Under the pieces are notes generated by a model. It ran no database searches. It had not been told where the DNA came from and worked only from the letters and a program-made list of their open reading frames with translations. A stretch of DNA of 54,500 nucleotides from an uncultured Chloroflexota bacterium. GTDB lineage: Bacteria; Chloroflexota; Dehalococcoidia; UBA2979. The position numbers and the translations under genes were made by a program. Within the stretch, counting starts at the first letter, position 1, and each line of letters opens with the position of its first letter. The stretch is taken from positions 1 to 54,500 of the forward strand of contig CAIXBH010000093.1 of the NCBI GenBank assembly GCA_903917615.1, read 5' to 3'. This document shows, in pieces, positions 10,409-54,445 of this stretch.

Positions 10409-11626
10409 CTATCGGTCTCCCCTCGTGTAGATGACGCTGAGGCACTTGCCGGCGACGTCGTGGACGTACTGGCCGACCTGCGCGCCCTGCACCTGGCGCT
10501 CGGTGCCCTCGTACGAGTGGCGCAGCTGGCGGATCAGCTCCGGCTGGTGGTTCCACGACTGCATATATGACTCGGACAGCATGCCGCCCGAGGTATTGCA
10601 CGGGATCTCGCCGCCGATCTCGATGCGCCCGTCCTGGATGAACGCGCCGCCTTCGCCGTCGCCGCAGAAGCCGAAGCCCTCGAGGCTGAACAACAGGTGC
10701 GTGCTGAACGAGTCGTACGTGGCATAGACGTCCACGTCCTTCTGGGTCACGTCCGCCATCGGGTACAGCTGCTCGCGCACGGCGTGGTGCGCCGGCTTGT
10801 AGAAGTCCTTGAGCCGCGGGCGGAGCTGCGTCGAGTCGACATCGAGCTCAGACCAGCCGATCCCACTGACGTTGATCGGCAGGTTCTTGCCGTCCTTCGC
10901 CATGTCGGCGCGCTGGATGATGAACGCGACCCCGCCGTCGTTGATGAGGCAGTAGTCGAAGAGGTGGAACGGCGCGCTGATGTAGCGCGACTCCATGTAG
11001 TCCTCGATGGTGATCGGCTTGCCGTACATCACCGCGTTCGGGTTCATCGAGGCGTGCTTGCGGAAGGCGACCGCGACCGCGCCAAGCTGTTCCTCGGTGG
11101 TGCCGTACTGGAGCTGGTGCCGGCGGAACATCATCGAGTACAGGCCGCCCTGCGAGGTCATGCCCCAGGGCGCGTAGTAGACGTATGAGAGGATGCCGGC
11201 GTCCGTCACGCGTGGGCCGCCGTAAGCGGTGTCCATCGACCGCTGCGCGTTGCCGTACACGAGCGCGACCGTGTGGCAGAGGCCCGCGTTGATCGCCTGC
11301 ACGGCCGCGATGATTCCGCGAGGGGCGTCCCCGGACACGCACCAGGAGGCGTTGATGCCGAGCACCTCGCAGGTGCGCTCGGTGGACATCGGCCCGCCGA
11401 CGACGAGGCCGTCGATGGCGCTTTTGTCGATGCCGGCGTCGTCGAGCGCGCGCTTCAGCGCCTTCGCGGCGAGCTGGTAGGAGTTGAGCGTGCCGGAGCC
11501 CTTCTCCGTCGCGTTCCCGCGCGCGCCTGCGCGGTAGTCCTCCCGGTAGTCCGTTTCCCCGACGCCGATCACGGCGACGGTGTCCTTCAGTCGCTTCAGT
11601 CGGTCGAGCTCAACTACGCCCGCCAT
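10409..11626 (-). CDS. Thiolase-like protein (SCP-x / lipid-transfer-protein type)
   Basis: VAVIGVGETDY N-terminus, NTSGGMLSE near the C-terminus, and an adjacent DUF35 gene. GGGAG lies 6 nt upstream of ATG 11626; ATG 11632 has no spacer. Confidence 0.8.
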   Translation of the reverse strand: MAGVVELDRLKRLKDTVAVIGVGETDYREDYRAGARGNATEKGSGTLNSYQLAAKALKRALDDAGIDKSAIDGLVVGGPMSTERTCEVLGINASWCVSGDAPRGIIAAVQAINAGLCHTVALVYGNAQRSMDTAYGGPRVTDAGILSYVYYAPWGMTSQGGLYSMMFRRHQLQYGTTEEQLGAVAVAFRKHASMNPNAVMYGKPITIEDYMESRYISAPFHLFDYCLINDGGVAFIIQRADMAKDGKNLPINVSGIGWSELDVDSTQLRPRLKDFYKPAHHAVREQLYPMADVTQKDVDVYATYDSFSTHLLFSLEGFGFCGDGEGGAFIQDGRIEIGGEIPCNTSGGMLSESYMQSWNHQPELIRQLRHSYEGTERQVQGAQVGQYVHDVAGKCLSVIYTRGDR

Positions 11627-11754
11627 GTGCATCTCCCTAGACTGCTGCTCTCAGCCGATCGCGCCGAATGGCGCCATCCCGGCCACGACGTCCCCGCGTT
11701 GTTCGTCCCTTGCGTGCCCCCTCCCGACGACGCTCCCCCCGGTGCGCGGAAAGA

Positions 11755-14163
11755 CTACTCCCCGCCACCCGACGCGACAGCCGTCGAGGCGAATGTCCCG
11801 GCTGCGGTCAGTCGCCGAATGTCGGCGTCGCTGAACCCGGCCGTCCGCGCGATCTCCTCGGTGTGCTGGCCGAGCAGCGGTGGCGCCGTGCGCAACGCCG
11901 CGAGCTCCGTGTCGAACATCCACGGGGTGTTCACCACCCGGATGAGCCCGGCCGCGGGATGCGCCATCGTGCGGATCATGTCCAGCGCGTGCGTTTGCGG
12001 ATGCTCGACGACTTCGCCCAGGTCGAGCATCCGCCCGAACATCCCGCCCGCCTCGTCCTCGACGACGCGGCGGATGTCCTCCCAGTGCCACGTGGCAAGC
12101 GTCCGGTTGATCTCCACACGCACATCATCGAGGTACGCGAAGATCGCCTCGCGGCTCGAGAACCGCGGATCCTCGAGGAGGTCGGCGCGCCCGATGCCGT
12201 TCAGGAACGGGATCCAGCCCTTCTCGTAGTCACGGAAGTTGCTGATGTAGATGGGACCATCCGCGCACAGGTAGCCGTGATCGGGCTCCGCGTTGAGACC
12301 GGTGACCGCGTTCGAGATCTGGTCGGCCGGGTGCCGCTCGGCCGTGAACGTCCACTGATACACGCCGACCTCAGAGCCAAGCAGCGAGACGTCCGCGTGC
12401 TGCCCGAGTCCCGAGCGCTCCCGCCAGATGAGCGCCGCGAGGATGCCCTGGAAGCCCGACATCCCGCCGGACATGCTCGCCTGGTCCAGCCCGAAGCGCA
12501 GCGGCTCCTCGCCCGGGACGCCGAGGTGCCGGTTGGCCCCCACTGCCGCCTGCACGTCGAGTTCGGTCGCCGGCTGGTCGGCCAGCGGCCCGGTGGTGCC
12601 GTTGCCCGTGATCGAGCAGTAGATCAGCCGCGGATTGAGCTCGCTCAGGGTCGCGTAGTCGAGGCCGAGCCGCTTCATGACCCCGGGCCGGTACCCCTCC
12701 ACGACGATGTCGGCGTCCTGTACGAGGCTGCGCGCCAGCGCGAGGCCCTCGGCGGTCTTGAGGTCGATCGCCGCGCCACGCTTGTTCCGGTTGAGCTGCA
12801 GGAACAGCGCACTCTCGCCGCCCTGGAACGGCGGCACCTGGCGCAGCCAGTCGCCCTCCGGCGGCTCGACCTTCACCACCTCCGCGCCGAGGTCACCCAG
12901 CTGCATCGCAGCGAGCGGACCTGACATGCCCTGAGAGAAGTCCACGACCTTCAGCCCGGAGAGCGCGAGACCCTGGAGCGGACGCTCAGGAGACGGAGCA
13001 GGCGGCTCGAAGGCCTGCAGCTCCGCCATCACCTCGTCCTGGTGCTCGCCGAACTTCGGCGCCGGACGCACGATGCGCGCCTCGGTCTTGTCGAAGTGCC
13101 AGTGCGGCTCTGCCGTGACGATCTCGCCGCCGTCCATCGGCAGCACCGAGACCATGTGTTCGGCAGCGACCTGCGCGTTGTCGAGGAGCGAGTCGGCGAG
13201 CGTCGGTAGCTTCTGGAACTCGCCAACAGGCACGTGCGCCTCGCGCAGCCGTGCGATCCACGCCGCGGAGGTCTGCGCGCGGAAGCGTTCCTGCAGCGCC
13301 GGCACGAGGTCGTCGCGGTGCTCGACACGCGCGGCCAGCGAGGTGTAGCGCGAGTCGCTCGCCAGGGCGTCTGCCCCGAGCGCCTCGCACAGTCGATGCC
13401 AGATCCGGTCGGTCGGCGCGCTGACCGTCACCCAACCGTCGGCAGTTTCGAAAGCCTGGTCCGGCACGATATTCGCCCGGGCGCTGCCGAGACGAGCCGG
13501 AGCCTTCCCCGTCGCGAGGTACTCCGCGATGCGCGTGGTGCCGGCAAGCAGCGTCGACTGGAATTGCGACGTCTGGACGCGCAGCCCCCGGCCGGTGCGC
13601 TCGCGCACGTAGAGCGCGATGAGCATCGCCTCGGTGTTCACCATCGCGCCGTTCCAGTCGAGCGACGAGGTACCGCGAGAGAACTCCGGTGGCCCGCCCG
13701 CGGGCCCCTGCATGCTGCTCGCGCCGCCGTACGCCTGCGCGATCCACTCGACGCTGGGACGACCGTCCAGCGGCCCTCGCGGGCCGAAGGCGCTGCTCTG
13801 AAGGTAGACGATGCGCGGGTTCGCCTCGCGCATGACTGACCAGCCCAGGCCGAGGCGCTCCATCACGGCCGGTGAGCGGAAGTTATCGACGACGACATCC
13901 GCCATCTGCACGAGTTCGAGCGCCGTCTGGCGATCCTCGTCGTTCTTCAGGTCGAGGATGATGCCGCGCTTGCCGATGTTGTTGCCGTTGAAGGTGTGGC
14001 CCGCCCAGTCCTGGCCGCCCTTGCCTCGGCGCACCATGTCGCCGGCGGGCGACTCGATCTTGATGACGTCCGCGCCGAGCCACGCGAGATACTCAGCGGA
14101 GATCGGGCCGACCGCCGCGATACCGAAGTCGAGGACGCGAATCCCGGCGAGCGGAGCTTCCAT
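11755..14163 (-). CDS. Tandem-fused double family-III CoA-transferase (CaiB/BaiF-type), 802 aa
   Basis: Two copies of the N-terminal signature: LAGIRVLDFGIAAVGPISAEYLAWLGADVIKIESPAGD, and LSGLKVVDFSQGMSGPLAAMQLGDLGAEVVKVEPPEGD starting near nt 12950. The listed 1125-aa ORF reads through the upstream permease gene in another frame. ATG 14163 is preceded by GGGAAGG. Confidence 0.85.
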   Translation of the reverse strand: MEAPLAGIRVLDFGIAAVGPISAEYLAWLGADVIKIESPAGDMVRRGKGGQDWAGHTFNGNNIGKRGIILDLKNDEDRQTALELVQMADVVVDNFRSPAVMERLGLGWSVMREANPRIVYLQSSAFGPRGPLDGRPSVEWIAQAYGGASSMQGPAGGPPEFSRGTSSLDWNGAMVNTEAMLIALYVRERTGRGLRVQTSQFQSTLLAGTTRIAEYLATGKAPARLGSARANIVPDQAFETADGWVTVSAPTDRIWHRLCEALGADALASDSRYTSLAARVEHRDDLVPALQERFRAQTSAAWIARLREAHVPVGEFQKLPTLADSLLDNAQVAAEHMVSVLPMDGGEIVTAEPHWHFDKTEARIVRPAPKFGEHQDEVMAELQAFEPPAPSPERPLQGLALSGLKVVDFSQGMSGPLAAMQLGDLGAEVVKVEPPEGDWLRQVPPFQGGESALFLQLNRNKRGAAIDLKTAEGLALARSLVQDADIVVEGYRPGVMKRLGLDYATLSELNPRLIYCSITGNGTTGPLADQPATELDVQAAVGANRHLGVPGEEPLRFGLDQASMSGGMSGFQGILAALIWRERSGLGQHADVSLLGSEVGVYQWTFTAERHPADQISNAVTGLNAEPDHGYLCADGPIYISNFRDYEKGWIPFLNGIGRADLLEDPRFSSREAIFAYLDDVRVEINRTLATWHWEDIRRVVEDEAGGMFGRMLDLGEVVEHPQTHALDMIRTMAHPAAGLIRVVNTPWMFDTELAALRTAPPLLGQHTEEIARTAGFSDADIRRLTAAGTFASTAVASGGGE

Positions 14164-34886: not shown

Positions 34887-36089
34887 ATGGCAGCAGCATT
34901 CAACCTGAAGGACCAGGCCGTTGTGGTCGGCGTCGGCGTGAGCGAGTTCGGGCGCGTCGTCGACAAGAGTCCCGCGATGCTGCAGGTGACCGCGTTCCGC
35001 AACGCCCTCGCAGACGCCGGACTCCAGCGCGACGACATCGACGGGTTCGTCACGGCGCACGGCGCGCCGAACGGCATGGACTACGACGAGTTCGCCCACC
35101 ACACCGGCATGAATCTGCGCTGGGCGAACCAGAGCTGGAGCCACGGACGCTGGGGCTCCACGAGCCTCGCCCAGGCTGCGGCCGCGGTCAGCACCGGCAT
35201 GGCGAACTACGTCGCGATCTGCAACACCACGCTGAGCGGCCACGGATACGCGCGCCACTTCGAGTCGGGCCGCCAGGGACGCGGGCACGCCGAGGGCCTC
35301 CGCGACTTCACGGGCGGTCACGGCGAGAGCAACATCGTCGGCCTCGACACCCCGGGCGCCGCGACGTCGCTAGTCGCGCGCGAGTACATGAGCCGCTACG
35401 GCGCCACCAGCGAGGAGCTCGGCACCGTCGCCGTGACCTTCCGCAAGCACGCGAACCTCAACCCGCAGGCCATCATGCACAGCAGGCCGATGACGCTGGA
35501 CGACTACATGGAGTCGCGCTTCATCACCCCGCCCTTCCGCCTGTTCGACTACTGCCTGGTCAACGAGGGCTCCACGTGCCTCATCGTGACCACCCCGGAC
35601 CGCGCGCGCGATCTGAAGCAGACGCCGGTCAACATCAGCGGCCTGCAGGGCGTGCAGACCAGCCGCGACTCCTCGAATCCGTACGCCCGGCCCGGCCTGC
35701 CGCTGAAGTTCCAGAGCGAATTCGACTACGTCGCGCCGCCCCAGCCTGTCTACGACATGGCGGACGTGAAGCAGGGCGACATCGACGGCCTCTACGTGTA
35801 CGACTCGTTCAGCACGAACCTGTGGATGGTGCTCGAGCGCTACGGCTTCTGCAAAGCCGGCGAGGCGCACGCCTTCATTCAGGACGGCCGCATCGCGCTG
35901 GGCGGCGAGCTGCCCGTGAACACGAACGGCGGCCTCATGTCGGAGGGCCACTACTCCGGCTACAACCACATGATCGAGATGGTGCGCCAGCTCCGCGGCG
36001 AATGCGGGCCGCGCCAGATCGCGGGCGCCGAAGTGCTCCAATGGGCGACCGGCTTCGGCGACTCGGCGATCATGACGAAGGCTCGCTAG
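34887..36089 (+). CDS. Thiolase-like protein (SCP-x type) without adjacent DUF35 gene
   Basis: AVVVGVGVSEFGR N-terminus and NTNGGLMSEGH near the C-terminus. Paralogous to 10409..11626. GGAGGTCGAG ATG. Confidence 0.8.
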   Translation: MAAAFNLKDQAVVVGVGVSEFGRVVDKSPAMLQVTAFRNALADAGLQRDDIDGFVTAHGAPNGMDYDEFAHHTGMNLRWANQSWSHGRWGSTSLAQAAAAVSTGMANYVAICNTTLSGHGYARHFESGRQGRGHAEGLRDFTGGHGESNIVGLDTPGAATSLVAREYMSRYGATSEELGTVAVTFRKHANLNPQAIMHSRPMTLDDYMESRFITPPFRLFDYCLVNEGSTCLIVTTPDRARDLKQTPVNISGLQGVQTSRDSSNPYARPGLPLKFQSEFDYVAPPQPVYDMADVKQGDIDGLYVYDSFSTNLWMVLERYGFCKAGEAHAFIQDGRIALGGELPVNTNGGLMSEGHYSGYNHMIEMVRQLRGECGPRQIAGAEVLQWATGFGDSAIMTKAR

Positions 36090-36137
36090 CCGACGGTCCA
36101 CTGAATCGGCGTCGCACACACTCTGGTTAAGACCGAC

Positions 36138-37106
36138 TCACGCGGTGAGACCGCGGTTCCCGCCGGGGCGAGACCCGACTGACACCGGCCTCGTTCCAAC
36201 CCGGGCCGGCGCCACCTGCTCCATCAGCGCGAGCACATCAGGGGAACCCACAGCGATCCTCGAGGCGATGCGCCGATCGCCGTCCACCAGCACGGCAGCC
36301 GGCGTGCCGGTCACACCGAATGCGCGCGCCGTCCGGTTGGCCGCGTCGAGCAGGATCGGCGTGTCGAGGTCAATCTCCTCGTGGTCCTCGACACGACCAG
36401 AAGAGACGACGACCAGCGCGGGCCTCGCCGCGCGACCGGCGTGAGCACGCAGGGCCGGCAGCAACCCGCGCGAGAACGGACAGTCCGGGCTCCAGAACAC
36501 GAGCAGCGAGGCATCGCCGCGACGGATATCGACTCCGGTGCGCCCGACGTTGTGGCGAGGCAGCCTCGGCGCACGCCATCCGACCGGCGTTGCCGGAAGT
36601 TCTCGGGCCCGCGAGCGGCCACCGAGCCACGCCCCGCCCGCCCCGATCGCCAGCGCGAGGGCCGCTGCGGCGACGCTCCGGCCCGGGTCGGCCGGCCACG
36701 GGCCCACCGCGCCGAGCGAGAGCACGGCGAGCGCCATCATCACCACGTTGCGCGCGATTGACGCTCCGAGAGATTCCAACCCAGGCGGCACGAGCGTGCC
36801 GAAACAGGCACAGAGTGACCGCCGCCCGCGAACGCCGTTGGCAGCGACCACGACCGTGAACGCCTCGAGTAGAGCGAGCGCCGCCACTGCGGCCCGTGGG
36901 GCCGACGAGGGCAGCACGAGCGCGAGAGCAATCGCGCCCTCGACGATCGGGAGGACGCGAGCGACGGTCCGCACCGCCGTATGCGGCACACCGAGGTCGC
37001 GGGCGGCGCGCCGAGTGCCCTGCGGGTCCCGCACCTTCGCGACCGCCGCGAGCCCGAAGAGCACCGCGAGGATCAGACGCGCCACGGTCGAGATCGCGAC
37101 CGTCAC
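36138..37106 (-). CDS. MauE/DoxX-like membrane domain fused to a TlpA/thioredoxin-like domain with a CPFS (monothiol) motif
   Basis: N-terminal TM helices with a CACFG motif (MauE hallmark as I recall it). The C-terminal LLVFWSPDCPFSRGLLPAL...GTPAAVLVD is a thioredoxin fold with Ser in place of the second Cys. Confidence 0.7.
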   Translation of the reverse strand: MTVAISTVARLILAVLFGLAAVAKVRDPQGTRRAARDLGVPHTAVRTVARVLPIVEGAIALALVLPSSAPRAAVAALALLEAFTVVVAANGVRGRRSLCACFGTLVPPGLESLGASIARNVVMMALAVLSLGAVGPWPADPGRSVAAAALALAIGAGGAWLGGRSRARELPATPVGWRAPRLPRHNVGRTGVDIRRGDASLLVFWSPDCPFSRGLLPALRAHAGRAARPALVVVSSGRVEDHEEIDLDTPILLDAANRTARAFGVTGTPAAVLVDGDRRIASRIAVGSPDVLALMEQVAPARVGTRPVSVGSRPGGNRGLTA

Positions 37107-37113
37107 GGCAGGA

Positions 37114-38535
37114 TCACCGGCAGCTCGGGTTCGGTACGTCGGCCGATTCGGTGCCCTTGATCGAACACGTCACGGACTGCCCCTGCTGATTTGTCACCAC
37201 GACAGTCATGGTGACCGCGTGATCCGGGCTCGCGTGCGCGCAGCGGTCGGGAGGCTCGCTCGAGTGGCTCCACGCCACCGACGTCCCGCTCTGCGTCCAC
37301 TTCGCTACCGGCGTGCCACACGCCTCGCTCGCCACGTCCGGCGTCAGCGTCCACGTGTACTTGAGTGCTCCACCCGCGGGATCCTTGGCGGTGATCGACC
37401 AGGTGGTAACCGGCGTCACGAAGACCTTGCGCAGGTCGGACACCACGGGCGCGCCCGCAGGTGGCGCGGCACCACCGGAGACCGGACGTTCGCCCGGGGC
37501 CGCGCTGAACCCCCCGCGGAGGAATACCCCGCCGATCACCAACAGCGCACCGAGGACGACCGTCGCGACCAGCACCCACCACTGCTGCAGCATCCAGCTC
37601 CACCAGTTGACCGCGTTGAACGGGCCCGGAAACGGCGTCGTGAAGTGCTCTTCGTCCGGCGACGGCGCGCAGGGCTTCGGTGGGGTGCGCTCGACCGCGA
37701 TCGCCATCCGCTCGAGTTCCTCGGGTGCGTCGTACGTCCCGACGAGTTCCCAGCCCTCCGAGATCTTCTCGGCGTCCTCCTGCTTCATGATCTCGGCCGT
37801 GCCGACGAACGCCGCCACGGCCACCCCGCTGATGACGGCCGCGGGCACCACGACCTGCGCCGCAAACGTCACGGCGGTACCGGTGGCGCTCAACACCGTC
37901 CCCGTCGCCCCGACGACCGCCGCACTCGCATCCGCGGTCGCGATCACGGCTGTGCCAACGACGCCAGTGCCCTCGGCGATCGGAATGCCAGTGCCGGCAG
38001 CCGTCGCCATGGTCCCGCCGAGCGTCTGCAGCGCCCCGCCCGAGCCCAGCACTGCCGCGGTCGCGCCGGCCTTGCCGGGCGGCGTCCATGAGGGCTGGTT
38101 CAGCCCCACCCGCGATCCGTCGCGCACGTTGTCACCGAACGAGTTCAGGAGGTCGCCGGCGGCCTTGTTCACGTCGTTGACGAACTCGTTGTAGATCTCG
38201 AGTGTCTTGTTCACGGCCCAGTACTCCACCCAGCGCTTCCGAATGAAGTGGCGGGTGACGTACGTGCTGATCTCGAATTCCTGTTCCTCCCAGCACATGC
38301 CGTTCTTCTGGTGCCGAATCGGCATGCTCTTGCTGTTCTTCACGGTGCGGCGCTTCGCCACCGTGGGGACCTCGTCGTCCTGGAACTTATTGAACTCGCG
38401 CTTCTCGACGACGTAGTCCTTCTTGATCCAGGTCGAGGGATGCAGCAATTCGCGTTCGCCGCTGTCGCCTGCGGCGTACGAGGACACGTCGATCGCGCCC
38501 GGGCTTCTCGTCGGGTCAGTGAATGGCTCGCCCAT
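37114..38535 (-). CDS. Hypothetical membrane protein: Lys-rich lower-GC N-domain, Gly/Ala/Thr/Val-rich segment, Trp-rich TM helix, Cys-containing Ig-like (DP-x-G-x-x-L-x-Y-x-W) ectodomain
   Basis: GAGGAG RBS. TM helix WWSWMLQQWWVLVATVVLGALLVIGGVF. KDPAGGALKYTWTL motif. Four Cys in the last ~70 aa. Stop lies 7 nt before the next gene start. Confidence 0.7.
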   Translation of the reverse strand: MGEPFTDPTRSPGAIDVSSYAAGDSGERELLHPSTWIKKDYVVEKREFNKFQDDEVPTVAKRRTVKNSKSMPIRHQKNGMCWEEQEFEISTYVTRHFIRKRWVEYWAVNKTLEIYNEFVNDVNKAAGDLLNSFGDNVRDGSRVGLNQPSWTPPGKAGATAAVLGSGGALQTLGGTMATAAGTGIPIAEGTGVVGTAVIATADASAAVVGATGTVLSATGTAVTFAAQVVVPAAVISGVAVAAFVGTAEIMKQEDAEKISEGWELVGTYDAPEELERMAIAVERTPPKPCAPSPDEEHFTTPFPGPFNAVNWWSWMLQQWWVLVATVVLGALLVIGGVFLRGGFSAAPGERPVSGGAAPPAGAPVVSDLRKVFVTPVTTWSITAKDPAGGALKYTWTLTPDVASEACGTPVAKWTQSGTSVAWSHSSEPPDRCAHASPDHAVTMTVVVTNQQGQSVTCSIKGTESADVPNPSCR

Positions 38536-38572
38536 GTCACGCTCCTCGTGCAGGCGTCGGGAGGTCGCACCA

Positions 38573-38598
38573 GCGGGCGACGCTGCGGCGTCGCCCGC
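38573..38598 (-). promoter_or_regulatory. Stem-loop ~40 nt upstream of the 473-aa gene, within the 254-nt spacer
   Basis: Perfect 11-bp stem gcgggcgacgc/gcgtcgcccgc with a 4-nt loop and no U tract on the minus strand. Confidence 0.45.
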
Positions 38599-38789
38599 AC
38601 TCTAGCGCGACCGGACAGAGCATGACACGGCTCCCCCGCACGCTCGGCGAGATACGACGCTGCCCGAGGGGGCGCGGTCTCTACCGAGCACCGGCTCGGC
38701 AACACTGCGGGACTGGTGACCGCACCGCTGAGGTCAGTCGGCTCCGACGGGGCGCCTCGCGCTCGTCCTGCGGACGCTCCGGGCGTGCG

Positions 38790-39524
38790 CTAGCGCCACG
38801 CGCCTTCCTCTGCGCGCACCTTGCGCCACTCGCGCAGGGGCAGCGAGCCGTCCTTCGAGAACACGTCTCGGTAGGCCTCGCGAAACACGCGCGCCACGTA
38901 CTTGCGCTGCTCGGCCGTGAGCCGGCGAGACAACGTCCCGTCACGCTTGCGCCACTTGAGGATCACAGAATCGTCAGGACAGACCAGCACATCCACCCAC
39001 GTGCACAGCCGCTGGTACTGCGTGTTGAGCAGGATGTACGCACCCCGCTCGAGGTGGCTCGGGTAATACTTCGGCTTCACGGGAAACGCGTCGCAGGGTG
39101 ACGGACGACGAGATTGCCAGAGTCCGCAGCGCGTCGTCCCGTCTGGATGATGCTGGAGCGCCTCGCAGCGGAACGCGGGCGGGCGGTCGTTGTTCGCATC
39201 CGCCGGTCGCCATGCCCTCGCCACCCCAGAGGGCGTCAACGGAATGATCAGCGGCTGCCCGCCGTTCATCGAACGCCACTGATGCTGCGGAATGCCCCCG
39301 AACGTGTACTGGCGAAGTGGAAAGCCGATCAGGTCGGCCTCCTCAGATCCGCAGCACTGCCCGCAGAGGTTGCACTCAAGCGACTGCGCCTCAGCGAGCG
39401 TCATGTACCGGGTGCCCGGCGGCGGATCGAAATCGCCGTCTGGGGAGTAGTCGTATATCTCGGGATCGCGACGGTCCCGCGCGTTGGACAACTGCCGCAG
39501 CGTGCGGTTCAGGGTCATGGACAT
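38790..39524 (-). CDS. CxxCxxCC (YkgJ/UPF0153-type) putative Zn/Fe-chelating domain protein
   Basis: CNLCGQCC, then later FRCEALQ..., then RCGLWQSRRPSPCDAFP. This matches the family pattern C-x2-C-x2-CC ... C ... C-x-(I/L)(Y/W)-x2-RP-x2-C-x2-(F/Y)P. Confidence 0.65.
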   Translation of the reverse strand: MSMTLNRTLRQLSNARDRRDPEIYDYSPDGDFDPPPGTRYMTLAEAQSLECNLCGQCCGSEEADLIGFPLRQYTFGGIPQHQWRSMNGGQPLIIPLTPSGVARAWRPADANNDRPPAFRCEALQHHPDGTTRCGLWQSRRPSPCDAFPVKPKYYPSHLERGAYILLNTQYQRLCTWVDVLVCPDDSVILKWRKRDGTLSRRLTAEQRKYVARVFREAYRDVFSKDGSLPLREWRKVRAEEGAWR

Positions 39525-39885
39525 CTCCCGACGAGCGCGAATGAGTGATTGTGCACAGCCCTCGCCACACTGTCACGCGGGCAGCCGTCTCGCGCACGGG
39601 CGCGGGACTCGAAGTCCCAGCGTCTCGCGGTCGGAACACGACTCCATCTCCCGCGACTGCATCGCTCCGGCCAGCCGCCGCCACCGCCCTAGACGTACGA
39701 ACCACATCCGTGATACAGCGCGGTATGACCGACGGGCGCGGACCCGCGGCCTTCGCTGCGCGTCAGACGTGCAGGTAACGGAGGCACAACAGGTCGGCGC
39801 GGACGGCAGAGGCCCGACAGCGTAAGGCTGACGACCAACACCGTCCGCGAGAACGAATGCAAATTGCCCAGGCGCCGGAGGAAAC

Positions 39886-47655: not shown

Positions 47656-47731
47656 GCGGGAGTAGCTCAGTTGGCAGAGCATCTGCTTCCCAAGCAGAGG
47701 GTCGCCGGTTCGAATCCGGTCTCCCGCTCCA
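47656..47731 (+). tRNA. tRNA-Gly (anticodon CCC)
   Basis: Folds by eye. Acceptor GCGGGAG/CTCCCGC, D arm GCTC-AGTTGGCA-GAGC, anticodon arm TCTGC-TTCCCAA-GCAGA, T arm GCCGG-TTCGAAT-CCGGT, discriminator T, encoded CCA. Confidence 0.9.
47687..47731 (+). repeat. att copy 1 (3' 45 nt of tRNA-Gly; attL of element 1)
   Basis: Identical 45-mer ttcccaagcagagggtcgccggttcgaatccggtctcccgctcca recurs at 52637 and 54446. Confidence 0.9.
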
Positions 47732-47838
47732 AACCACGAATCCCTTGCAAATAAAGGGGTTCCGGTACTTGAGAACGTACGTTCTACGAAGTACAGTGGT
47801 CCTGGAGCAGATAACTGACCTCTGCTCGGGAGCTCACC

Positions 47839-48774
47839 GTGCAGATCCAGAACCGCGTTCAGGAGCAGTCTGAGACAGATTCGCTCGCAAATTTCCGCTC
47901 TCTTGCGGAATCGTTCCGGCGCACACTTCTCGCCGAGAACAAGTCTCCTCGCACCGTCGCCACGTACACCGAATCGCTGAAGGCGTTCGGGAGCTTCGTC
48001 GCGTCGCAGGGCATGCCCAGCGACCCGGCGCACGTCAGGCGTGAACACGTCGAGGCGTTCATCTCGTATCTGCTCGAACGGTACAAGCCTGCGACGGCCA
48101 GCAACCGCTACCGAGGGCTTCAGGCGTTCTTCCGCTGGTGTGTCGAGGAAGGGGAGCTGAAGGCGTCGCCGATGGCGAAGATGAGCCCGCCGCACGTCCC
48201 TGAGACCCCGCCCGATGTGCTGAGTGATGCGGAACTCACGCGACTCCTGCGGGCTTGTGCCGGTGAGGGCTTCGAGGAACGACGCGACACCGCCATCATC
48301 CGGCTGTTCATCGACACGGGTTGTCGCCTGTCCGAAGTGACCGGCCTCAACGTCGAGGATGTGGACTTCGAGCAGAACGTGATCGTGGTGCTGGGCAAGG
48401 GACGGCGGCCGCGTGCGTGTCCCTTCGGTCGCAAGACGGCACGTGCACTCGACCGCTACCTCCGCAAGCGTTCGCAGCAACGCCTCGCAAGCGCGAAGGA
48501 ATTCTGGCTCGGGCACGCGGGACCGATGACGAGTTGGGGCATCGCCGATGTGATCCGACGGCGGGCAATCGTCGCAGGCGTGGAGGGTGTGCACCCGCAC
48601 CGCTTCCGTCACACCTACGCGCATCAATGGCTCGCGTCCGGTGGCAACGAGGGCGACCTGATGCGGCTCGCGGGGTGGCGCTCGCGCACGATGCTTTCTC
48701 GCTATGGGGCGAGTGCTGCGGATGAGCGAGCAAGGGCGGCGTACACGATGCGGTCGCCAGGCGATCGGCTCTGA
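47839..48774 (+). CDS. Tyrosine recombinase/integrase (XerC/D-like phage integrase family)
   Basis: SAM-like N-domain ([29 protein letters not shown]). Catalytic region with [23 protein letters not shown] and MLSRYG (R..HxxR..Y). GGGAG RBS before GTG. Confidence 0.9.
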
Positions 48775-48776
48775 AC

Positions 48777-49400
48777 GTGACCGACGACGCTGCGTTCGAG
48801 CGGTACCACGTCCTGTTGTTCCGACGACAGCCGCTCACGCTGCCATTGGTCGGACAGGTGGGGCTGCCTGGGGCCTACCCGGTCTTCAGCGTGTGGCCCA
48901 TCGAGGGCATCAGTTCGGACGCGCGAGTTGGGCGCTGGCGGCACTTCGAGGGCGATGTGCTGCGCGCCCACTTCGGCAAGCGTTGGCCGAAGGTGCTGGC
49001 GGACGAGCTCACCCCGGAGCGGCAGGCGTATCTCCGCATCGACGGCGAGGACGCCTCGGGCCAGCGGTATCGGCTCCCGCGTGTCGTCGTAGTCGAGTCG
49101 GCAGCGACCGAGGTTCCCGCGCGTCGTGGCGGGCGGCGCGCAGGGTCAGGTATGGGCGTCCTCGTGCGTCACCTTCGCGAGGTCGAGGGCATCGAGGACT
49201 ACCACGCCATCCTCGCGCTCTGCGAGCGCAGCGGCCTCGCGTGGGTGCACGAGGCGTTGGAGGCATCGGGGGCGCTGCCGAGTGACCGCGTAGCGATGCT
49301 GAGGAAGGCGTTCAGCAACGGGAAGCGGACGCATCAGGTGTCGTGCCCGTACTGCACGAACGGCCTGCCGGAGCCGTGGAGAACGCTGCTCGCGGCCTAG
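48777..49400 (+). CDS. Hypothetical protein (element 1)
   Basis: High-GC3 ORF starting 3 nt after the integrase stop. No recognisable motif apart from a C-terminal CPYC. Confidence 0.45.
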   Translation: MTDDAAFERYHVLLFRRQPLTLPLVGQVGLPGAYPVFSVWPIEGISSDARVGRWRHFEGDVLRAHFGKRWPKVLADELTPERQAYLRIDGEDASGQRYRLPRVVVVESAATEVPARRGGRRAGSGMGVLVRHLREVEGIEDYHAILALCERSGLAWVHEALEASGALPSDRVAMLRKAFSNGKRTHQVSCPYCTNGLPEPWRTLLAA

Positions 49401-49471
49401 AAATGGCCTCGGCGCGAATGTAGGTCGTATCCAGCGCAGACCGGCCCACGCTTCGCCGATAGGTTCGCTGC

Positions 49472-49714
49472 ATGGACAGCGCAGCGAGCCAACGAGCACG
49501 CATCGCCGCTTACACGCGGTGGTCGAGGACGCCCGACGCGGCGAGCGCGACAGCGCCGGCGCGGCGGGCGTTCGACCTACGTTTCGAGCGCGAAGTGGAC
49601 CCCGACGGCTCCCTGTCGCCCGAGGTGCGCCGCACCCTCGCGGAACGCGCCCGAAAGGCGTACTTCGCACGGCTCGCCTATGCCTCCGCAAAGGCTCGGC
49701 GGCACCGTCGATGA
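49472..49714 (+). CDS. Small basic protein of the kind commonly found next to rep genes in actinobacterial integrative elements
   Basis: The pattern YTRWSRTPD..ATAPARRAF..RFEREVDPDG.L.P..R...AE.ARKAYFARLA is recalled from such elements. ATGA overlap with the next gene. Confidence 0.55.
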   Translation: MDSAASQRARIAAYTRWSRTPDAASATAPARRAFDLRFEREVDPDGSLSPEVRRTLAERARKAYFARLAYASAKARRHRR

Positions 49715-50703
49715 CCCGCCATGACGACTCCACCCTGCCCCCGACCACTAACAGGGGGGCAGAAATTACCGACTCTATGGCCGGTATCGACTGGCTGGAG
49801 TTCTCCGTCACCGAGTCAGATTGGAACCGGATAGCGGAGCGGCTGACCTTTGACGGCGACGCATGGCGAGAGCTCGACCATGGGGCGCTCGGCTACGCGC
49901 ACTACGCGGTGAGCGACCGCGAGATTGACGTGATGTGGGACGAGCGGCGTCCAGAGGTTCACGTGCGACTCACCGGGAAAGCCTGCTCCCGGCTCGCCGA
50001 GGACGTACTGCTGTCGGTGGTGGGCTGGGTGACGAGTCAGGGTGGCGGCTTCTCGCGCATCGACGTACAGGCGACCGTCCCCTATGCCGTCGCGACCGTG
50101 GAGCAATTCGGCGAAGCCATCGAGCGCGGCGAACACGTGACCCGCGTGCATCAGGCAGGACTCACGCGACAGTTGTCGTTGCGACGCTCGGAGTTCGACC
50201 GACTGCTCGGACGGACGCTGTATGTCGGCTCCCCGACCAGTCGGCGGCGGCTCCGTGTGTACGACAAGGGCATCGAGTCGGGCGGCCTCATCGACGGCAC
50301 ACGCATCGAGCTCCAGGAGCGTGACGAGGCCGCGGACGAGTGCGCGCGGCAACTGCTCGGTTCGGAGCCGCTGGCGGTGGTGTTCGCCGGCAGACTCGCC
50401 GGGTTCCTCGACTTCCGCGAGCGGGACGGCGAGAACGTGACGCGCTGGCGTCGGTCAGCCTGGTACGAACGCCTCATCGGAGAAGTGGGACGAGCTCGCG
50501 CCGTCGCCCCGGTCGAGGACACCACGCCCGAACAAGCGGAGGAATGGGTACGGCGTCAGGTCTCACCGACCTTCGCCGCTCTCGCTCGGTTGGGAATGTT
50601 GGACGTCGGCGCGCTGCTCGACGAGGGACGGAAGCGGCTCAACCCGAAGCACCAACGCTGGCTGCGCGCGGCGCGGGTCAAGGCCGAACGAGGCGAGCCG
50701 TAG
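49711..50703 (+). CDS. Rolling-circle-type replication initiation protein (Rep_trans/RepSA-like)
   Basis: GIDWLEFSV, RIDVQATVP, LYVGSPTSRRRLRVYDKGIE and TRIELQERDE motifs. Confidence 0.7.
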   Translation: MTRHDDSTLPPTTNRGAEITDSMAGIDWLEFSVTESDWNRIAERLTFDGDAWRELDHGALGYAHYAVSDREIDVMWDERRPEVHVRLTGKACSRLAEDVLLSVVGWVTSQGGGFSRIDVQATVPYAVATVEQFGEAIERGEHVTRVHQAGLTRQLSLRRSEFDRLLGRTLYVGSPTSRRRLRVYDKGIESGGLIDGTRIELQERDEAADECARQLLGSEPLAVVFAGRLAGFLDFRERDGENVTRWRRSAWYERLIGEVGRARAVAPVEDTTPEQAEEWVRRQVSPTFAALARLGMLDVGALLDEGRKRLNPKHQRWLRAARVKAERGEP

Positions 50704-50709
50704 GGTGGT

Positions 50710-51777
50710 ATGAATGGCGCGCCAGTCAGACGCTGCTCGGTGCGCCAGTCGATGGACGCGGTTTCGGAGACTCAGATGGAAACAGTGGGAGTCCTGCTCG
50801 CACTAGTTGGAATGGTGGCCTTCGTAATTGGGGCTGTTTGCGTCGTCTACCCGATTCGCCGTCTGCGTGTGAGCAACCGGAGAATTGCGGCGGGGGTGCT
50901 GCTCGCCGGGGTCGTCCTGTTCGCGGTAGGTGGCGCGTTGCTCCCACCGTCGTCGCGAACGTCGGGGGGCACGGTAGCCGCGTCGCCGACAGCGACCCAG
51001 GTCGCCACAAACGTCCCAGTCAGCCAGGCAACGTCAGTACCGAACGCGAACGGCTCCGCTAGCCCGAGCGCCGGGAACGCCACCGGAAACATAGACACGG
51101 GCAGCCGTCCGGGCGTCCCGATGCCCGACCCGCGTCTCACGCCGGGCGATACGTTCACCGTGACGGTCACTCAGATCTGCGTATCCGGTTACAGCGCGAG
51201 TGTTCGCGATGTACCAGACTCAGAAAAGACACAGGTCTACGCGCAATACGGCATTACGTCGCATCCAACGGGAGCGTATGAGATCGACCATCTCATCCCG
51301 CTCGAAATTGGCGGGTCGAACGATATCCGGAATCTGTGGCCGCAGCCCGAGCAGGGTGACGCGGGTTCGCTCGTCAAAGACAAGCTGGAGAACAAGCTGC
51401 ACGCGCTTGTGTGCGCAGGACAACTCGACTTGGCGGTCGCGCAGCGCGAGATCGCGGGGGATTGGTACAGTGCTTATCTCCGGTATGTGCTGAATACAAA
51501 TGCGCCGTCCGCAGCGGGCAGTCCCGGTCCAGTCGCGGCAACGTCGGCGCCTTTGAATGTTCCGACAGCTCTCCCGACGCCGACGGATGCCGCACCAACC
51601 GCGACGCAGACTGCGGTTGCGCCCGCCGCTACCGCCGCTCCCGCACCCTCCCAGAACGTGGTAACGGCGGGTGCGTTCTGCAGCCCGGGGGGAGCCACGG
51701 GTGTCACCAAGACAGGGTTGCAGATGGTCTGCACCACCTCGGCAACCGACTCGCGCAATCGCTGGCGTCAGCCGTAA
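50710..51777 (+). CDS. Membrane-anchored HNH-like endonuclease-family protein
   Basis: Two N-terminal TM helices and a low-complexity linker. Then ICVSGYSASVRDVP...YEIDHLIPLEIGGSNDIRNLWPQP...KDKLENKLH, an HNH-like motif seen in actinobacterial exported proteins. Confidence 0.6.
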   Translation: MNGAPVRRCSVRQSMDAVSETQMETVGVLLALVGMVAFVIGAVCVVYPIRRLRVSNRRIAAGVLLAGVVLFAVGGALLPPSSRTSGGTVAASPTATQVATNVPVSQATSVPNANGSASPSAGNATGNIDTGSRPGVPMPDPRLTPGDTFTVTVTQICVSGYSASVRDVPDSEKTQVYAQYGITSHPTGAYEIDHLIPLEIGGSNDIRNLWPQPEQGDAGSLVKDKLENKLHALVCAGQLDLAVAQREIAGDWYSAYLRYVLNTNAPSAAGSPGPVAATSAPLNVPTALPTPTDAAPTATQTAVAPAATAAPAPSQNVVTAGAFCSPGGATGVTKTGLQMVCTTSATDSRNRWRQP

Positions 51778-52023
51778 GGCTAGGTTGGTCGCGGTTAGCC
51801 GCTGCATCCCGGCCACCGATGGCCGCGTGCGGCGCGGGTCAAGGCCGAGCGAAGCGAGCCGCAGGGAAGCCTTGATGCGCGTCGTACGCCTGCACGCTGG
51901 GCACGCGGCGAGTACCGGCGACAGTCGGCGCTCGCCGCTCCATGCTCTGCTATTCTCCTGACGCTCGACCTGCAGGCGGCCCTATCGAATCGGTACGCCG
52001 CGACAGCCGCGACGGAGGACAAC

Positions 52024-52536
52024 ATGACGCGATGGACTGGGATGGCGATCCTCTCGCTTGCGCTCAGTCTTGCGGTCGCAGCGTGCGACGGTGCAAGCGA
52101 CACGAAGGGCGCAAGCACCGCCCCAGCAACGAGCAGCACGACGGGTACAGCAACGAGTGGTCCGACGGGGGAGATATCTCCAGCGGCCCTCGCAGAACGT
52201 TTGAAGGGAAGTGCCGCTGCGGATGGTGAAGTCCGGGGAGCGTTCGTGAGTTGGCTCACCTCTACGGTCTGCGCACCTGGGTCGCCAGGCGACCCGCAAG
52301 CTAACTGGTGCGGGGGAATCCAAGGGGTCGCCTTCGCCAATCAAACGTTGACGGCACGGGTTTCACTCCCGAACAACAACGCCAAGCCCGATGCGGTTCT
52401 GGTATGTCAACGATTCTCAACGTTCGTCTTCAATAACCTGTATGCGAAGTACGGGCTCCAGAACGTGGTCCTCGTCTCGGACACGGACGGCAAGACGTTG
52501 GCGCAGCGTCGAGGCATTGCGGGCGGTTGCGGTTGA
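52024..52536 (+). CDS. Hypothetical lipoprotein
   Basis: Signal peptide with lipobox LAVAAC. Confidence 0.6.
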   Translation: MTRWTGMAILSLALSLAVAACDGASDTKGASTAPATSSTTGTATSGPTGEISPAALAERLKGSAAADGEVRGAFVSWLTSTVCAPGSPGDPQANWCGGIQGVAFANQTLTARVSLPNNNAKPDAVLVCQRFSTFVFNNLYAKYGLQNVVLVSDTDGKTLAQRRGIAGGCG

Positions 52537-52636
52537 ACGGGTTGACCGTCCCGCTCGACGCCTTTGCCGCCACCCGATAACTGGACCGATTCCGGCAGCA
52601 GTAGCACGTCTGCAGCACAGCGCATCGTATAAGATG

Positions 52637-52681
52637 GTTCCCAAGCAGAGGGTCGCCGGTTCGAATCCGGTCTCCCGCTCC
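52637..52681 (+). repeat. att copy 2 (attR of element 1 / attL of element 2)
   Basis: Exact 45-bp copy of the tRNA-Gly 3' end. No 5' tRNA half precedes it. Confidence 0.9.
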
Positions 52682-52803
52682 ATTACACACGATCCCTTGT
52701 AATTCCAAGGGATCCGGGCTTCCGGAGGGCCTCCGGAGGCCTTTTCCCGATATCCCCGATGGCGCGCGAGCCGATAACTGAACCTCGACCCGAGGAGGTT
52801 CAG

Positions 52804-53760
52804 ATGTCCCAGAGATCCCAGCAAACCAGCCAGATTCGCCCGTTCGGCACACCCGAAACCGACCCACTGTCGGAAAGTTATCGGGCCTTGGTGGCGAGCT
52901 TCCGCAGGAAGCTGCTCGCCGAAAACAAGTCGCCACGGACCATCCAGACGTACGGCGAAGCCCTTCGGCTATTCGACGCGTTTCTCGTCGAACAGGGCAT
53001 GCCGCTCGCGCTCCCGCACATCCGTCGGGAACACGTCGAAGCGTTCATGACCGACTTGCTCGCCCGGTATCGGCCGGCGACTGCGGCAAACCGCTATCGC
53101 ACGCTCAACCTCTTCTTCGCCTGGTGCGTGGCCGAGGGAGAGATCACCCGTTCCCCCATGCAGCGGATGCAGCCGCCGATCGTGCCGGTCGTGCCGCCTG
53201 CCGTGCTGACGGCGGATGAACTGACACGTCTGTTCAAGGTCTGTCAGGGCACGCTGTTCCGGGAGCGCCGAGATATGGCAATCCTCCGGCTGTTCGTCGA
53301 CACCGGCATGCGTGTCGGGGAGCTCGCGTGGATCCAATTGGAGGACCTCGATCGCGAGTACAACGTGGTCGCGGTCCTCGGTAAGAATCGCCGGCCGCGA
53401 CTATGCCCCTTCGGCCGGAAGACGGCGCTCGCGCTGGATCGCTACCTCCGCCTCCGTGCGCAACGGAAAGACGCGCACCAGCCCACACTCTGGCTCGGGA
53501 GCGGTGGTCCCATGACCCTGAACGGCATCGCGCATATGGTGCGCCGGCGAGCGGCCGAGGCCGGCCTCGATCACGTCCATCCGCACCGGTTCCGCCACAC
53601 GTTTGCGCACGAATGGCTGGCCGCCGGCGGCGCCGAGATCGACCTGATGCAACTCGCCGGGTGGCACTCCCGGACCATGCTCGCGCGCTACGGCGCAAGC
53701 GCCGCTGCCGAGCGCGCGCGGGATGCCCATCGCCGTCTGGCGCTCGGCGATCGGTTCTAG
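52804..53760 (+). CDS. Tyrosine recombinase/integrase, paralog of 47839..48774
   Basis: Collinear similarity to integrase 1 ([55 protein letters not shown]). GAGGAGG lies 5 nt upstream of ATG 52804 (ORF opens at 52759). Confidence 0.9.
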   Translation: MSQRSQQTSQIRPFGTPETDPLSESYRALVASFRRKLLAENKSPRTIQTYGEALRLFDAFLVEQGMPLALPHIRREHVEAFMTDLLARYRPATAANRYRTLNLFFAWCVAEGEITRSPMQRMQPPIVPVVPPAVLTADELTRLFKVCQGTLFRERRDMAILRLFVDTGMRVGELAWIQLEDLDREYNVVAVLGKNRRPRLCPFGRKTALALDRYLRLRAQRKDAHQPTLWLGSGGPMTLNGIAHMVRRRAAEAGLDHVHPHRFRHTFAHEWLAAGGAEIDLMQLAGWHSRTMLARYGASAAAERARDAHRRLALGDRF

Positions 53761-53869
53761 AGGTGAGTTGCGAACCTGCCAGCGTTAGCGGAACCTGCGA
53801 TGGCCGGCGCGGCGAACCGGGGCCCGGTCCCGCGAACGCCAACGAGACAGCGTCGGGGAGGCGTGACTG

Positions 53870-54100
53870 ATGCCCGAGCGGCTTCCCCGGGTCACCTCGT
53901 CGGAGCTGCTAGCGGCACTGCGTCGCGCCGGTTGGGGAATAGTGCGCCAACGGGGCAGTCATGCACGGCTGGCCCATCCCGAGCGAGGTGGGCGTGTCAC
54001 GGTCTCCGTGCATGCCCGCGACATCGTGAAACCCGGCACGCTCCGCGCCATCCTGGAGCAGGCTGGCCTCACAGTCGACGAACTGGTTGAGTTACTTTAG
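53870..54100 (+). CDS. hicA: HicA-family mRNA interferase toxin
   Basis: 76 aa. The pattern LLAALRRAGWGIVRQRGSHARLAHPERGGRVTVSVHARDIVKPGTLRAILEQAGL is typical of HicA/YcfA. Confidence 0.85.
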   Translation: MPERLPRVTSSELLAALRRAGWGIVRQRGSHARLAHPERGGRVTVSVHARDIVKPGTLRAILEQAGLTVDELVELL

Positions 54101-54122
54101 AGGCGCATCCGTGGAGGAAAGC

Positions 54123-54350
54123 ATGAAGCGCTACACGGTGGTTCTGATTCCCGAGCCCGAGGAGGGCGGCTACTCCGTGACAGTGCCCGCGTTGCCGGGA
54201 CTGTTCACCCAAGGTGAGTCGAAGGACGAGGCACTGCAGGCCGCCCGCGAGGCGATTGCGTTCCACCTCGAATGCCTGGCAGAAGAAGGCGCGGCGATCC
54301 CCGAGGACGACGGTGTCGTTTTCGAGCACGTGGACGTTGCGGTCGCCTGA
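54123..54350 (+). CDS. hicB: HicB-family antitoxin (UPF0150 fold)
   Basis: MKRYTVVLIPEPEEGGYSVTVPALPGLFTQGESKDEALQAAREAIAFHLE. GGAGGAAAGC ATG. Confidence 0.85.
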   Translation: MKRYTVVLIPEPEEGGYSVTVPALPGLFTQGESKDEALQAAREAIAFHLECLAEEGAAIPEDDGVVFEHVDVAVA

Positions 54351-54445
54351 CGCCTGAATGCGTCAGCGGGTTCATTGAGGCCCGATAACTTTGGTGACTT
54401 CCGCGGCACCAGCGAATCTGGACCGCGGTGGAAGCGAGCCATGAG

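Follow-up and report, generated by a model that had tools for sequence, protein, structure and literature searches.

Three adjacent genes lie on the minus strand of a 54,500-nucleotide stretch of an uncultured Chloroflexota bacterium (contig CAIXBH010000093.1; this whole stretch is called the window below). In the direction of transcription, they encode a 244-amino acid protein with a CxxCxxCC cysteine cluster (38790-39524), an orphan membrane protein of 473 amino acids (37114-38535), and a 322-amino acid fusion of a MauE domain to a thioredoxin fold (MauE-Trx; 36138-37106). A spacer of 254 nt separates the first gene from the second, and one of 7 nt the second from the third. A preliminary description had presented the trio as a foreign-looking operon inside a catabolic island, forming a coherent redox or maturation system for a single client protein. 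The gene calls, both spacers, and the domain assignments of that description were all recovered: each of the three open reading frames (ORFs) is present at the position first reported. It had passed over the two family-wide invariant cysteines of the 473-amino acid protein, the CPFS form of the thioredoxin active site, and the existence of alternative ectodomain types in the family. We nevertheless consider it probable, though well short of certain, that the region comprises two independent units rather than one three-gene system, because homologs of the three genes are not syntenic at other loci, the CxxCxxCC gene is missing from a closely related strain and has a promoter-like site of its own, and a hairpin lies between it and the next gene.

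All three genes are real, with a GC content at third codon positions (GC3) of 0.82-0.88 and, for the 473-amino acid gene, a dN/dS of ~0.08 between strains. The window as a whole is GC-rich (~0.68), and the genes that flank the trio encode family III CoA-transferases, an amidohydrolase, a thiolase-like protein, a luciferase-like monooxygenase, and a Baeyer-Villiger monooxygenase (BVMO), which bears out the catabolic setting. The foreign look of the trio did not survive inspection: the GC content and synonymous codon usage of the three genes fall within the range of neighboring genes (17 other ORFs of the window in the case of codon usage). We likewise rejected a mobile or foreign island, given the host-like composition, the absence of flanking repeats, and the absence of relatives on mobile DNA: those of the 473-amino acid protein were found on none of the viral contigs or plasmids searched, and those of MauE-Trx were absent from a plasmid search.

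Conservation of the three-gene arrangement

Homologs of the three genes were not syntenic in the other loci examined, an outcome that the preliminary description had itself named as refuting its proposal. Neither a MauE/Trx nor a CxxCxxCC gene was found near homologs of the 473-amino acid protein at ~10 distinct loci (contexts P0002-P0005, P0069, P0072, P0074, P0075-like, P0076, and P0117), and neither a 473-family nor a MauE-Trx gene was found near homologs of the CxxCxxCC protein at three distinct loci. When the three window proteins were compared with 26 loci by tblastn, MauE-Trx was matched only in a contig of the same species (L008), and the CxxCxxCC protein never appeared beside a 473-family gene. 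A metagenome scan returned five loci with relatives of the 473-amino acid protein, two of them previously found, with partner genes at none; a scan of genome contigs with a five-sequence alignment returned no relatives. The neighbors of 473-family genes include polA, PALP, leuB/NUDIX, adh_short (short-chain dehydrogenase), aldo-keto reductase, and ArsR/ArsM genes, and none recurs except a PALP gene, seen at two loci. Homologs of the CxxCxxCC gene adjoin TfoX_N, GyrI-like, or MFS genes.

The same separation is seen between strains. The sister-strain contig L002 aligns to window positions 47732-39827 with 97.9% identity and to positions 38613-37106 with 98.8% identity. Comparison by blastn and alignment showed that it lacks the intervening 1213-bp segment containing the CxxCxxCC gene (38614-39826; no strand assigned) and has 258 unrelated bp in its place. 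No target-site or terminal repeats flanking this strain-variable segment were found in a repeat scan. The two versions of this intergenic segment, which precedes the double CoA-transferase gene, share nothing but the exact 16-mer GCTGTATCACGGATGT (window 39704-39719; L002 7995-8010), possibly an operator or a leftover of homology. The contig L008 is collinear with window positions 38421-34125 at 98.3% identity and keeps the pairing of the 473-amino acid gene with MauE-Trx. Thus, one part of the proposed trio, the pairing of these two genes, stands within the species only, whereas the link to the CxxCxxCC gene fails.

The CxxCxxCC protein carries the motif C51-x2-C54-x2-C57-C58 (residues 51-58; 39351-39374). 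It resembles the YkgJ/UPF0153 family (PF03692) in its N-terminal CxxCxxCC motif, in the further conserved cysteines that follow, and in being a small soluble protein, but it scores below the gathering threshold of that family (19.4 bits against 23) and belongs to a tight subfamily of ~25 clusters, ~242 amino acids in length and 57-87% identical. A homolog, P0054, carries a precomputed PF03692 match. Nine cysteines, and the CxxCxxCC motif itself, are invariant in 14 homologs that span this range of identity, and the named source records of the subfamily are exclusively Dehalococcoidia metagenome-assembled genomes (MAGs). A promoter-like site, GTGACA-17-CACAAT, lies on the minus strand 24 nt upstream of the ATG of this gene (39548-39576); it is a consensus match only, found once where 0.3 occurrences were expected in shuffled sequences. 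On the other side of the gene, the 254-nt spacer contains a perfect 11-bp stem with a 4-nt loop (38573-38598, minus strand), embedded in a larger predicted structure (z = -3.2). This hairpin is situated 38-63 nt upstream of the ATG of the 473-amino acid gene, its flank is kept in L002, and it could be either a terminator of the upstream gene or an element of the 5' untranslated region.

A tRNA-Gly(CCC) gene lies at 47656-47731. Beyond it come genes for a tyrosine integrase (47839-48774) and for a replication initiator of the Rep_trans type (49519-50703), then a direct repeat that matches 45 bp of the tRNA 3' end exactly (~52637-52682), a second integrase gene (52759-53760), and a third copy of the 45-bp repeat (~54446-54490). 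From this layout, positions 47656-54490 appear to hold a tandem insertion of two small integrative elements at the tRNA gene, and the sister-strain contig L002 breaks exactly at this tRNA. The gene order of the catabolic island is, to judge from one rearranged contig, fluid between relatives: L027, from a Chloroflexi MAG, carries an ortholog of the 834-amino acid double CoA-transferase with 80% identity and an IS6-like transposase fragment upstream of it (L027 1-849), and the genes that follow the ortholog (L027 3462-11229) are homologous to window positions 10425-14163. As a rearranged arrangement from a single MAG, located with the 834-amino acid CoA-transferase as query, it is uninformative on whether the pair formed by the 473-amino acid gene and MauE-Trx is an insertion.

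The 473-amino acid protein and its family

The 473-amino acid gene is preceded by a Shine-Dalgarno sequence, GAGGAG, 6 nt before its ATG. Its product consists of a beta-rich N-terminal domain (38206-38535), a Gly/Ala-rich hydrophobic insert (37786-38085), a beta hairpin with the motif AEKISEGWE (37666-37773), a transmembrane (TM) helix (37519-37608), and a C-terminal Ig-like domain (37117-37449), all encoded on the minus strand. Cysteines occur at positions 81, 289, 406, 432, 457, and 472, the last four of them in the Ig-like domain, just as the preliminary description had it.

The family to which this protein belongs is rare. A word-indexed search of 5.8 billion proteins gave five matches, and an exhaustive profile search of 1.84 billion cluster representatives gave 12 at E ≤ 1e-30, along with weaker matches to the N-terminal module; members have so far been seen only in high-GC environmental MAGs and metagenome contigs. 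In an alignment of 24 members, a conserved module extends from residue 1 to ~340 and is followed by non-homologous C-terminal domains, such that the four-cysteine domain of the window protein is one of several alternative ectodomain types. Cys81, Trp262, and Cys289 are invariant in this alignment, and the two cysteines are the only ones invariant across the family. Pfam searches with the window protein, its subdomains, and the 24 family members gave nothing significant, nor did searches of NCBIfam, PADLOC, and PHROGs with the window protein, and a family profile found no match among PDB sequences.

Structure prediction with AlphaFold2 (AF2) gave a similar picture of a well-defined but unfamiliar module. 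A first model, built from five sequences, was too poor to use, with a predicted local distance difference test (pLDDT) score of 52. With 24 sequences the mean pLDDT was 68.5, and residues 1-20, residues 41-110, and the hairpin at 255-290 exceeded 90; the Gly/Ala/Thr-rich stretch at 143-232 was below 50, a TM helix was placed at 310-338, and an Ig-like sandwich at 364-462 was modeled with a pLDDT of ~80-88. Foldseek comparison of two AF2 models with PDB and BFVD returned only generic Ig/FnIII matches, confined to the C-terminal domain, and no structural analogue of the conserved module (N-terminal domain, insert, and hairpin). The protein thus resembles Ig/FnIII surface proteins in its C-terminal sandwich, which matches glycoside hydrolase (GH)-associated Ig, FnIII, and CsgC/CsgH domains (E 1e-3 to 1e-2), but differs from them in the part that defines the family, where there is no match. 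Several identities were tried and set aside: the N-terminal module showed no significant match to a MACPF/ClyA-like pore former, to a bacterial PH domain, or to a holin or other phage protein, and for a cupredoxin-like copper site in the ectodomain there were only weak PmoD and azurin matches (E 0.1-0.15).

The gene is under strong purifying selection, with three nonsynonymous and 12 synonymous differences between strains (the dN/dS of ~0.08 given above). As for topology, Lys and Arg residues number 52 in the 15 residues before the last TM helix and 18 in the 15 residues after it, summed over the 24 family members, with a family-wide net charge of +35 before and -10 after; the window protein alone, with none before and two after, is uninformative by itself. 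Pro/Thr/Ala-rich linkers follow the TM helix in the family. By this charge-count heuristic, the conserved module is most likely cytoplasmic and the variable domain external. The extracytoplasmic placement that the preliminary description had given the cysteine-bearing Ig-like domain is, by the same count, the most likely one.

Every member that has the same ectodomain type as the window protein, namely the orthologs P0069 and P0076 and the probable paralog P0117, keeps all four of its cysteines, and none of the three has an adjoining MauE-Trx gene. P0117 (L015-L017), a distant member of the family, derives from the same three ENA samples as the sister strains of the window (ERZ1079234-6). It is 30% identical to the window protein in the N-terminal module and 66% identical in the four-cysteine ectodomain, where true orthologs are 52-53% identical; these identities suggest ectodomain exchange or concerted evolution between putative paralogs.

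Another ectodomain, recognizable by the motif "...DPxGH...TATGxGTVAG...LPxGxxITF", occurs in P0003, P0004, P0005, P0071, P0072, P0075, P0077, and P0080. The family profile matched 443 cluster representatives (132 of them at E ≤ 1e-10), most only via this alternative ectodomain, and proteins that match it alone have many different architectures. Pfam gave no match to it among the 24 aligned family members, several of which carry it, and its distribution suggests an extracellular domain that is widespread yet unannotated. Between Cys289 and the TM helix lies a further motif, EEHWTTP (EEHFTTP in the window protein, residues 294-300, ~37640-37670), of which some homologs (P0070, P0074, and P0076) have two or three copies and which, given its predicted position, could serve in the cytoplasm as a linear binding motif. 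We read the 473-amino acid protein as a membrane-anchored one whose conserved scaffold, in the cytoplasm and the membrane, displays interchangeable surface domains. No annotation exists for the family, nor could an analogue of its conserved module be detected, and, having no conserved partner, it stays an orphan family.

The MauE-thioredoxin fusion

MauE has been reported to replace DsbB in Escherichia coli when taken from either of two phyla, and to act as a generalist that is not bound to methylamine dehydrogenase (10.64898/2026.03.05.709764). The loop that joins TM3 to TM4 carries its active site, a CXC motif with F-G after it, and a conserved Lys on TM1 and Glu on TM2 lie near the predicted quinone site; thioredoxin fusions account for 8.2% of MauE entries and are analogous to the VKOR-Trx fusions (10.64898/2026.03.05.709764). 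The window protein conforms to this description in its N-terminal half. Residues 4-131 match Pfam MauE (PF07291) with 83.2 bits against a cut-off of 27 (E 2.5e-23; 36714-37097, minus strand, as are all features of this gene), and the domain has four hydrophobic helices with a CACFG motif in the TM3-TM4 loop (residues 99-103; 36798-36812). K24 on TM1 and E56 on TM2 are equated with the conserved Lys and Glu of the preprint by position rather than by joint alignment. The assignment of a MauE-type CACFG domain fused to a thioredoxin fold, hence of a membrane thiol-redox module, is supported. An alignment of 11 homologs shows no variation at CACFG, K24, or E56, and CACFG is present in all 38 homologs found. 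No mau genes (the MauD equivalog, mauA/mauB; methylamine dehydrogenase) occur among the flanking genes scanned, in line with a generalist role for MauE.

A fifth TM helix (36606-36665) tethers the C-terminal thioredoxin fold, a feature shared with VKOR-Trx fusions; these and the DsbB/DsbA pair are functional analogues of the MauE-Trx fusion. The fold itself (36240-36542) is TlpA/MauD-like by weak profile matches: AhpC-TSA and Thioredoxin_2 match residues 193-289 with ~25 bits, just under their curated cut-offs, and there are weak matches to Redoxin and to MauD (NCBIfam TIGR02661, E 5.9e-6). The likeness to MauD, TlpA, and ResA has limits, for the window domain reaches 25.9 bits against a MauD equivalog cut-off of 188.6, has no resolving cysteine, and is joined to MauE instead of having a signal-sequence anchor. 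Its active site does not have the CxxC form but reads CPFS (36471-36482), and the protein has exactly three cysteines, at positions 99, 101, and 209.

In this respect the window protein departs from its relatives. Most of the 38 homologs are 470-520 amino acids long and have two thioredoxin domains, whereas the window protein has one; CxxC is found in the 37 others, and P0006, the copy from the same species, also has CPFS. MauE-Trx fusions are known, and the window protein is a monothiol, single-thioredoxin variant of them. It also stands out by its divergence between strains. The gene differs by 16.5 nonsynonymous and 13.5 synonymous changes (dN/dS ~0.52), compared with 11 and 54 in the pooled neighboring genes (dN/dS 0.04-0.08; Fisher p ~5e-4), so that constraint on it is relaxed. 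It is a local hotspot of divergence, with 7-18 differences per 200 nt against 1-4 in the flanks, and its C-terminal length is strain-dependent, at 303 versus 322 amino acids. Across the 4.3 kb compared, divergence peaks, with 18 differences per 200 nt, at window positions 36000-36199, which hold the last ~60 nt of the gene and a 48-nt convergent gap to the gene for the thiolase-like protein.

Two probable units and the alternatives

In the two-unit reading, the first unit would be a solitary, housekeeping-type YkgJ-like gene for a cysteine-cluster (metal-binding) protein, with its own promoter-like site, present or absent depending on the strain, and with no functional tie to the genes downstream. 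The second would be a co-transcribed pair, the 473-amino acid membrane protein followed by MauE-Trx. The 7-nt gap between these two genes holds no terminator-like site, and the junction is consistent with the two genes probably being co-transcribed. In the 473-amino acid protein, the beta-rich N-terminal domain would be cytoplasmic, the Gly/Ala-rich hydrophobic hairpin would dip into the membrane, the conserved beta hairpin would return to the cytoplasmic domain, and a single TM helix would then lead outside to the family-variable extracytoplasmic domain, here Ig-like with four conserved cysteines that probably form two disulfides. In MauE-Trx, the quinone-linked CxC site of the four-TM MauE domain would exchange a disulfide, at the outer face of the membrane, with Cys209 in the thioredoxin fold tethered to it, and the thioredoxin domain would then act on cysteines of exported proteins. 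The CxxS site restricts that domain to mixed disulfides, and it would thus serve as a monothiol relay or as an isomerase or holdase, not as a classical CxxC oxidase. From the motifs and the domain order, MauE-Trx most likely performs thiol-disulfide chemistry on exported proteins at the outer face, and the neighboring ectodomain is plausibly, but need not be, among its substrates. The adjacency of the two genes is a recent, species-level arrangement that the 473-amino acid family does not require.

In this reading, the gene content, the absence of synteny, the strain variation, the motifs, and the relaxed constraint are observed, and the topology, the disulfide pattern, the redox direction, co-transcription, and the client relationship are inferred. 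Several points weigh against this interpretation. Owing to the rarity of the 473-amino acid family, the synteny sample is small, at ~10 distinct loci. Co-transcription of the pair, the disulfide pairing, and the contact of the N-terminal domain with the hairpin are predictions. In a crude count on MauE-Trx, loop 1 and the CxC loop account for most Lys and Arg residues, with ~4 per sequence for the CxC loop and 0.5 for loops 2 and 4. By the positive-inside rule, this distribution would place the CxC loop and the thioredoxin domain in the cytoplasm, contrary to the published topology, in which TOPCONS puts the CXC loop of other MauE proteins outside (10.64898/2026.03.05.709764). Finally, the CPFS site, the single thioredoxin domain, and the dN/dS of ~0.5 could reflect a fusion that is losing function rather than a monothiol mechanism.

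A single dedicated system, in which the cytoplasmic cysteine-cluster protein and the membrane MauE-Trx mature the 473-amino acid protein, would account for three adjacent genes on the same strand whose products are all cysteine-centered. We regard it as very improbable, as no other locus examined shows mutual synteny of the homologs, a ~98%-identical strain retains the 473-amino acid gene without the CxxCxxCC gene, the spacer between them holds a strong hairpin 3' of a gene that has a promoter-like site of its own, and highly conserved members of the CxxCxxCC family stand alone in diverse neighborhoods. A narrower proposal confines the partnership to the pair: the monothiol, single-thioredoxin derivative of MauE would have been recruited to serve the four-cysteine ectodomain alone, as its disulfide isomerase or chaperone. 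The 7-nt junction is kept in two strains, the client cysteines are on the outer face by the family-wide charge count, and the catalytic CxC, K24, and E56 are retained; moreover, the CPFS site and the short, one-thioredoxin architecture, confined to this lineage among the 38 homologs, fit neofunctionalization after recruitment. Yet the same ectodomain occurs without an adjoining MauE-Trx in P0069, P0076, and P0117, an essential dedicated partner would not be expected to have a dN/dS of ~0.52 when that of its putative client is 0.08, and MauE is reported to be a generalist (10.64898/2026.03.05.709764). On this evidence we hold a dedicated pair to be unlikely.

The same divergence can be read as decay, in which case MauE-Trx would be a degenerating or redox-inactive paralog and its position next to the 473-amino acid gene a coincidence. 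Loss of CxxC to CxxS, unique to this species among the homologs, the one thioredoxin domain where most have two, the excess of nonsynonymous change over the pooled neighbors (16.5/13.5 against 11/54), the clustering of differences in the gene, and the variable C-terminus all point that way. Against it, the ORF is intact in both strains with a GC3 of 0.82, all catalytic hallmarks of MauE and Cys209 are kept, and dN/dS is still below 1; we think decay decidedly improbable. A bolder form of the recruitment idea would have an undescribed membrane family capture, in this lineage, the monothiol CxxS MauE-Trx as its private disulfide isomerase or chaperone; the family would be marked by a new cytoplasmic beta-fold, which the two invariant cysteines staple or regulate, by a glycine-zipper-like membrane insert, and by surface domains that can be exchanged. 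This we consider quite unlikely; if true, it would give the first MauE dedicated to a client other than methylamine dehydrogenase and the first relay of its kind from CxC to a single cysteine.

We therefore return to two independent units as the preferred reading. The trio is not the new maturation system that had been proposed, and the region is modestly interesting for other reasons. MauE has only just been recognized as a widespread DsbB analogue, and a natural CxxS MauE-Trx fusion is a ready test case: it could show whether a single-cysteine relay can be driven from the CxC site of MauE or whether fusions of this sort decay. The 473-amino acid family is rare, unannotated, and under strong purifying selection, and it combines a confidently modeled module that has no structural analogue with swapped ectodomains. 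It is thus a reasonable structural and functional target for understanding the cell envelope of the uncultured, apparently Chloroflexota-like bacteria that carry it.

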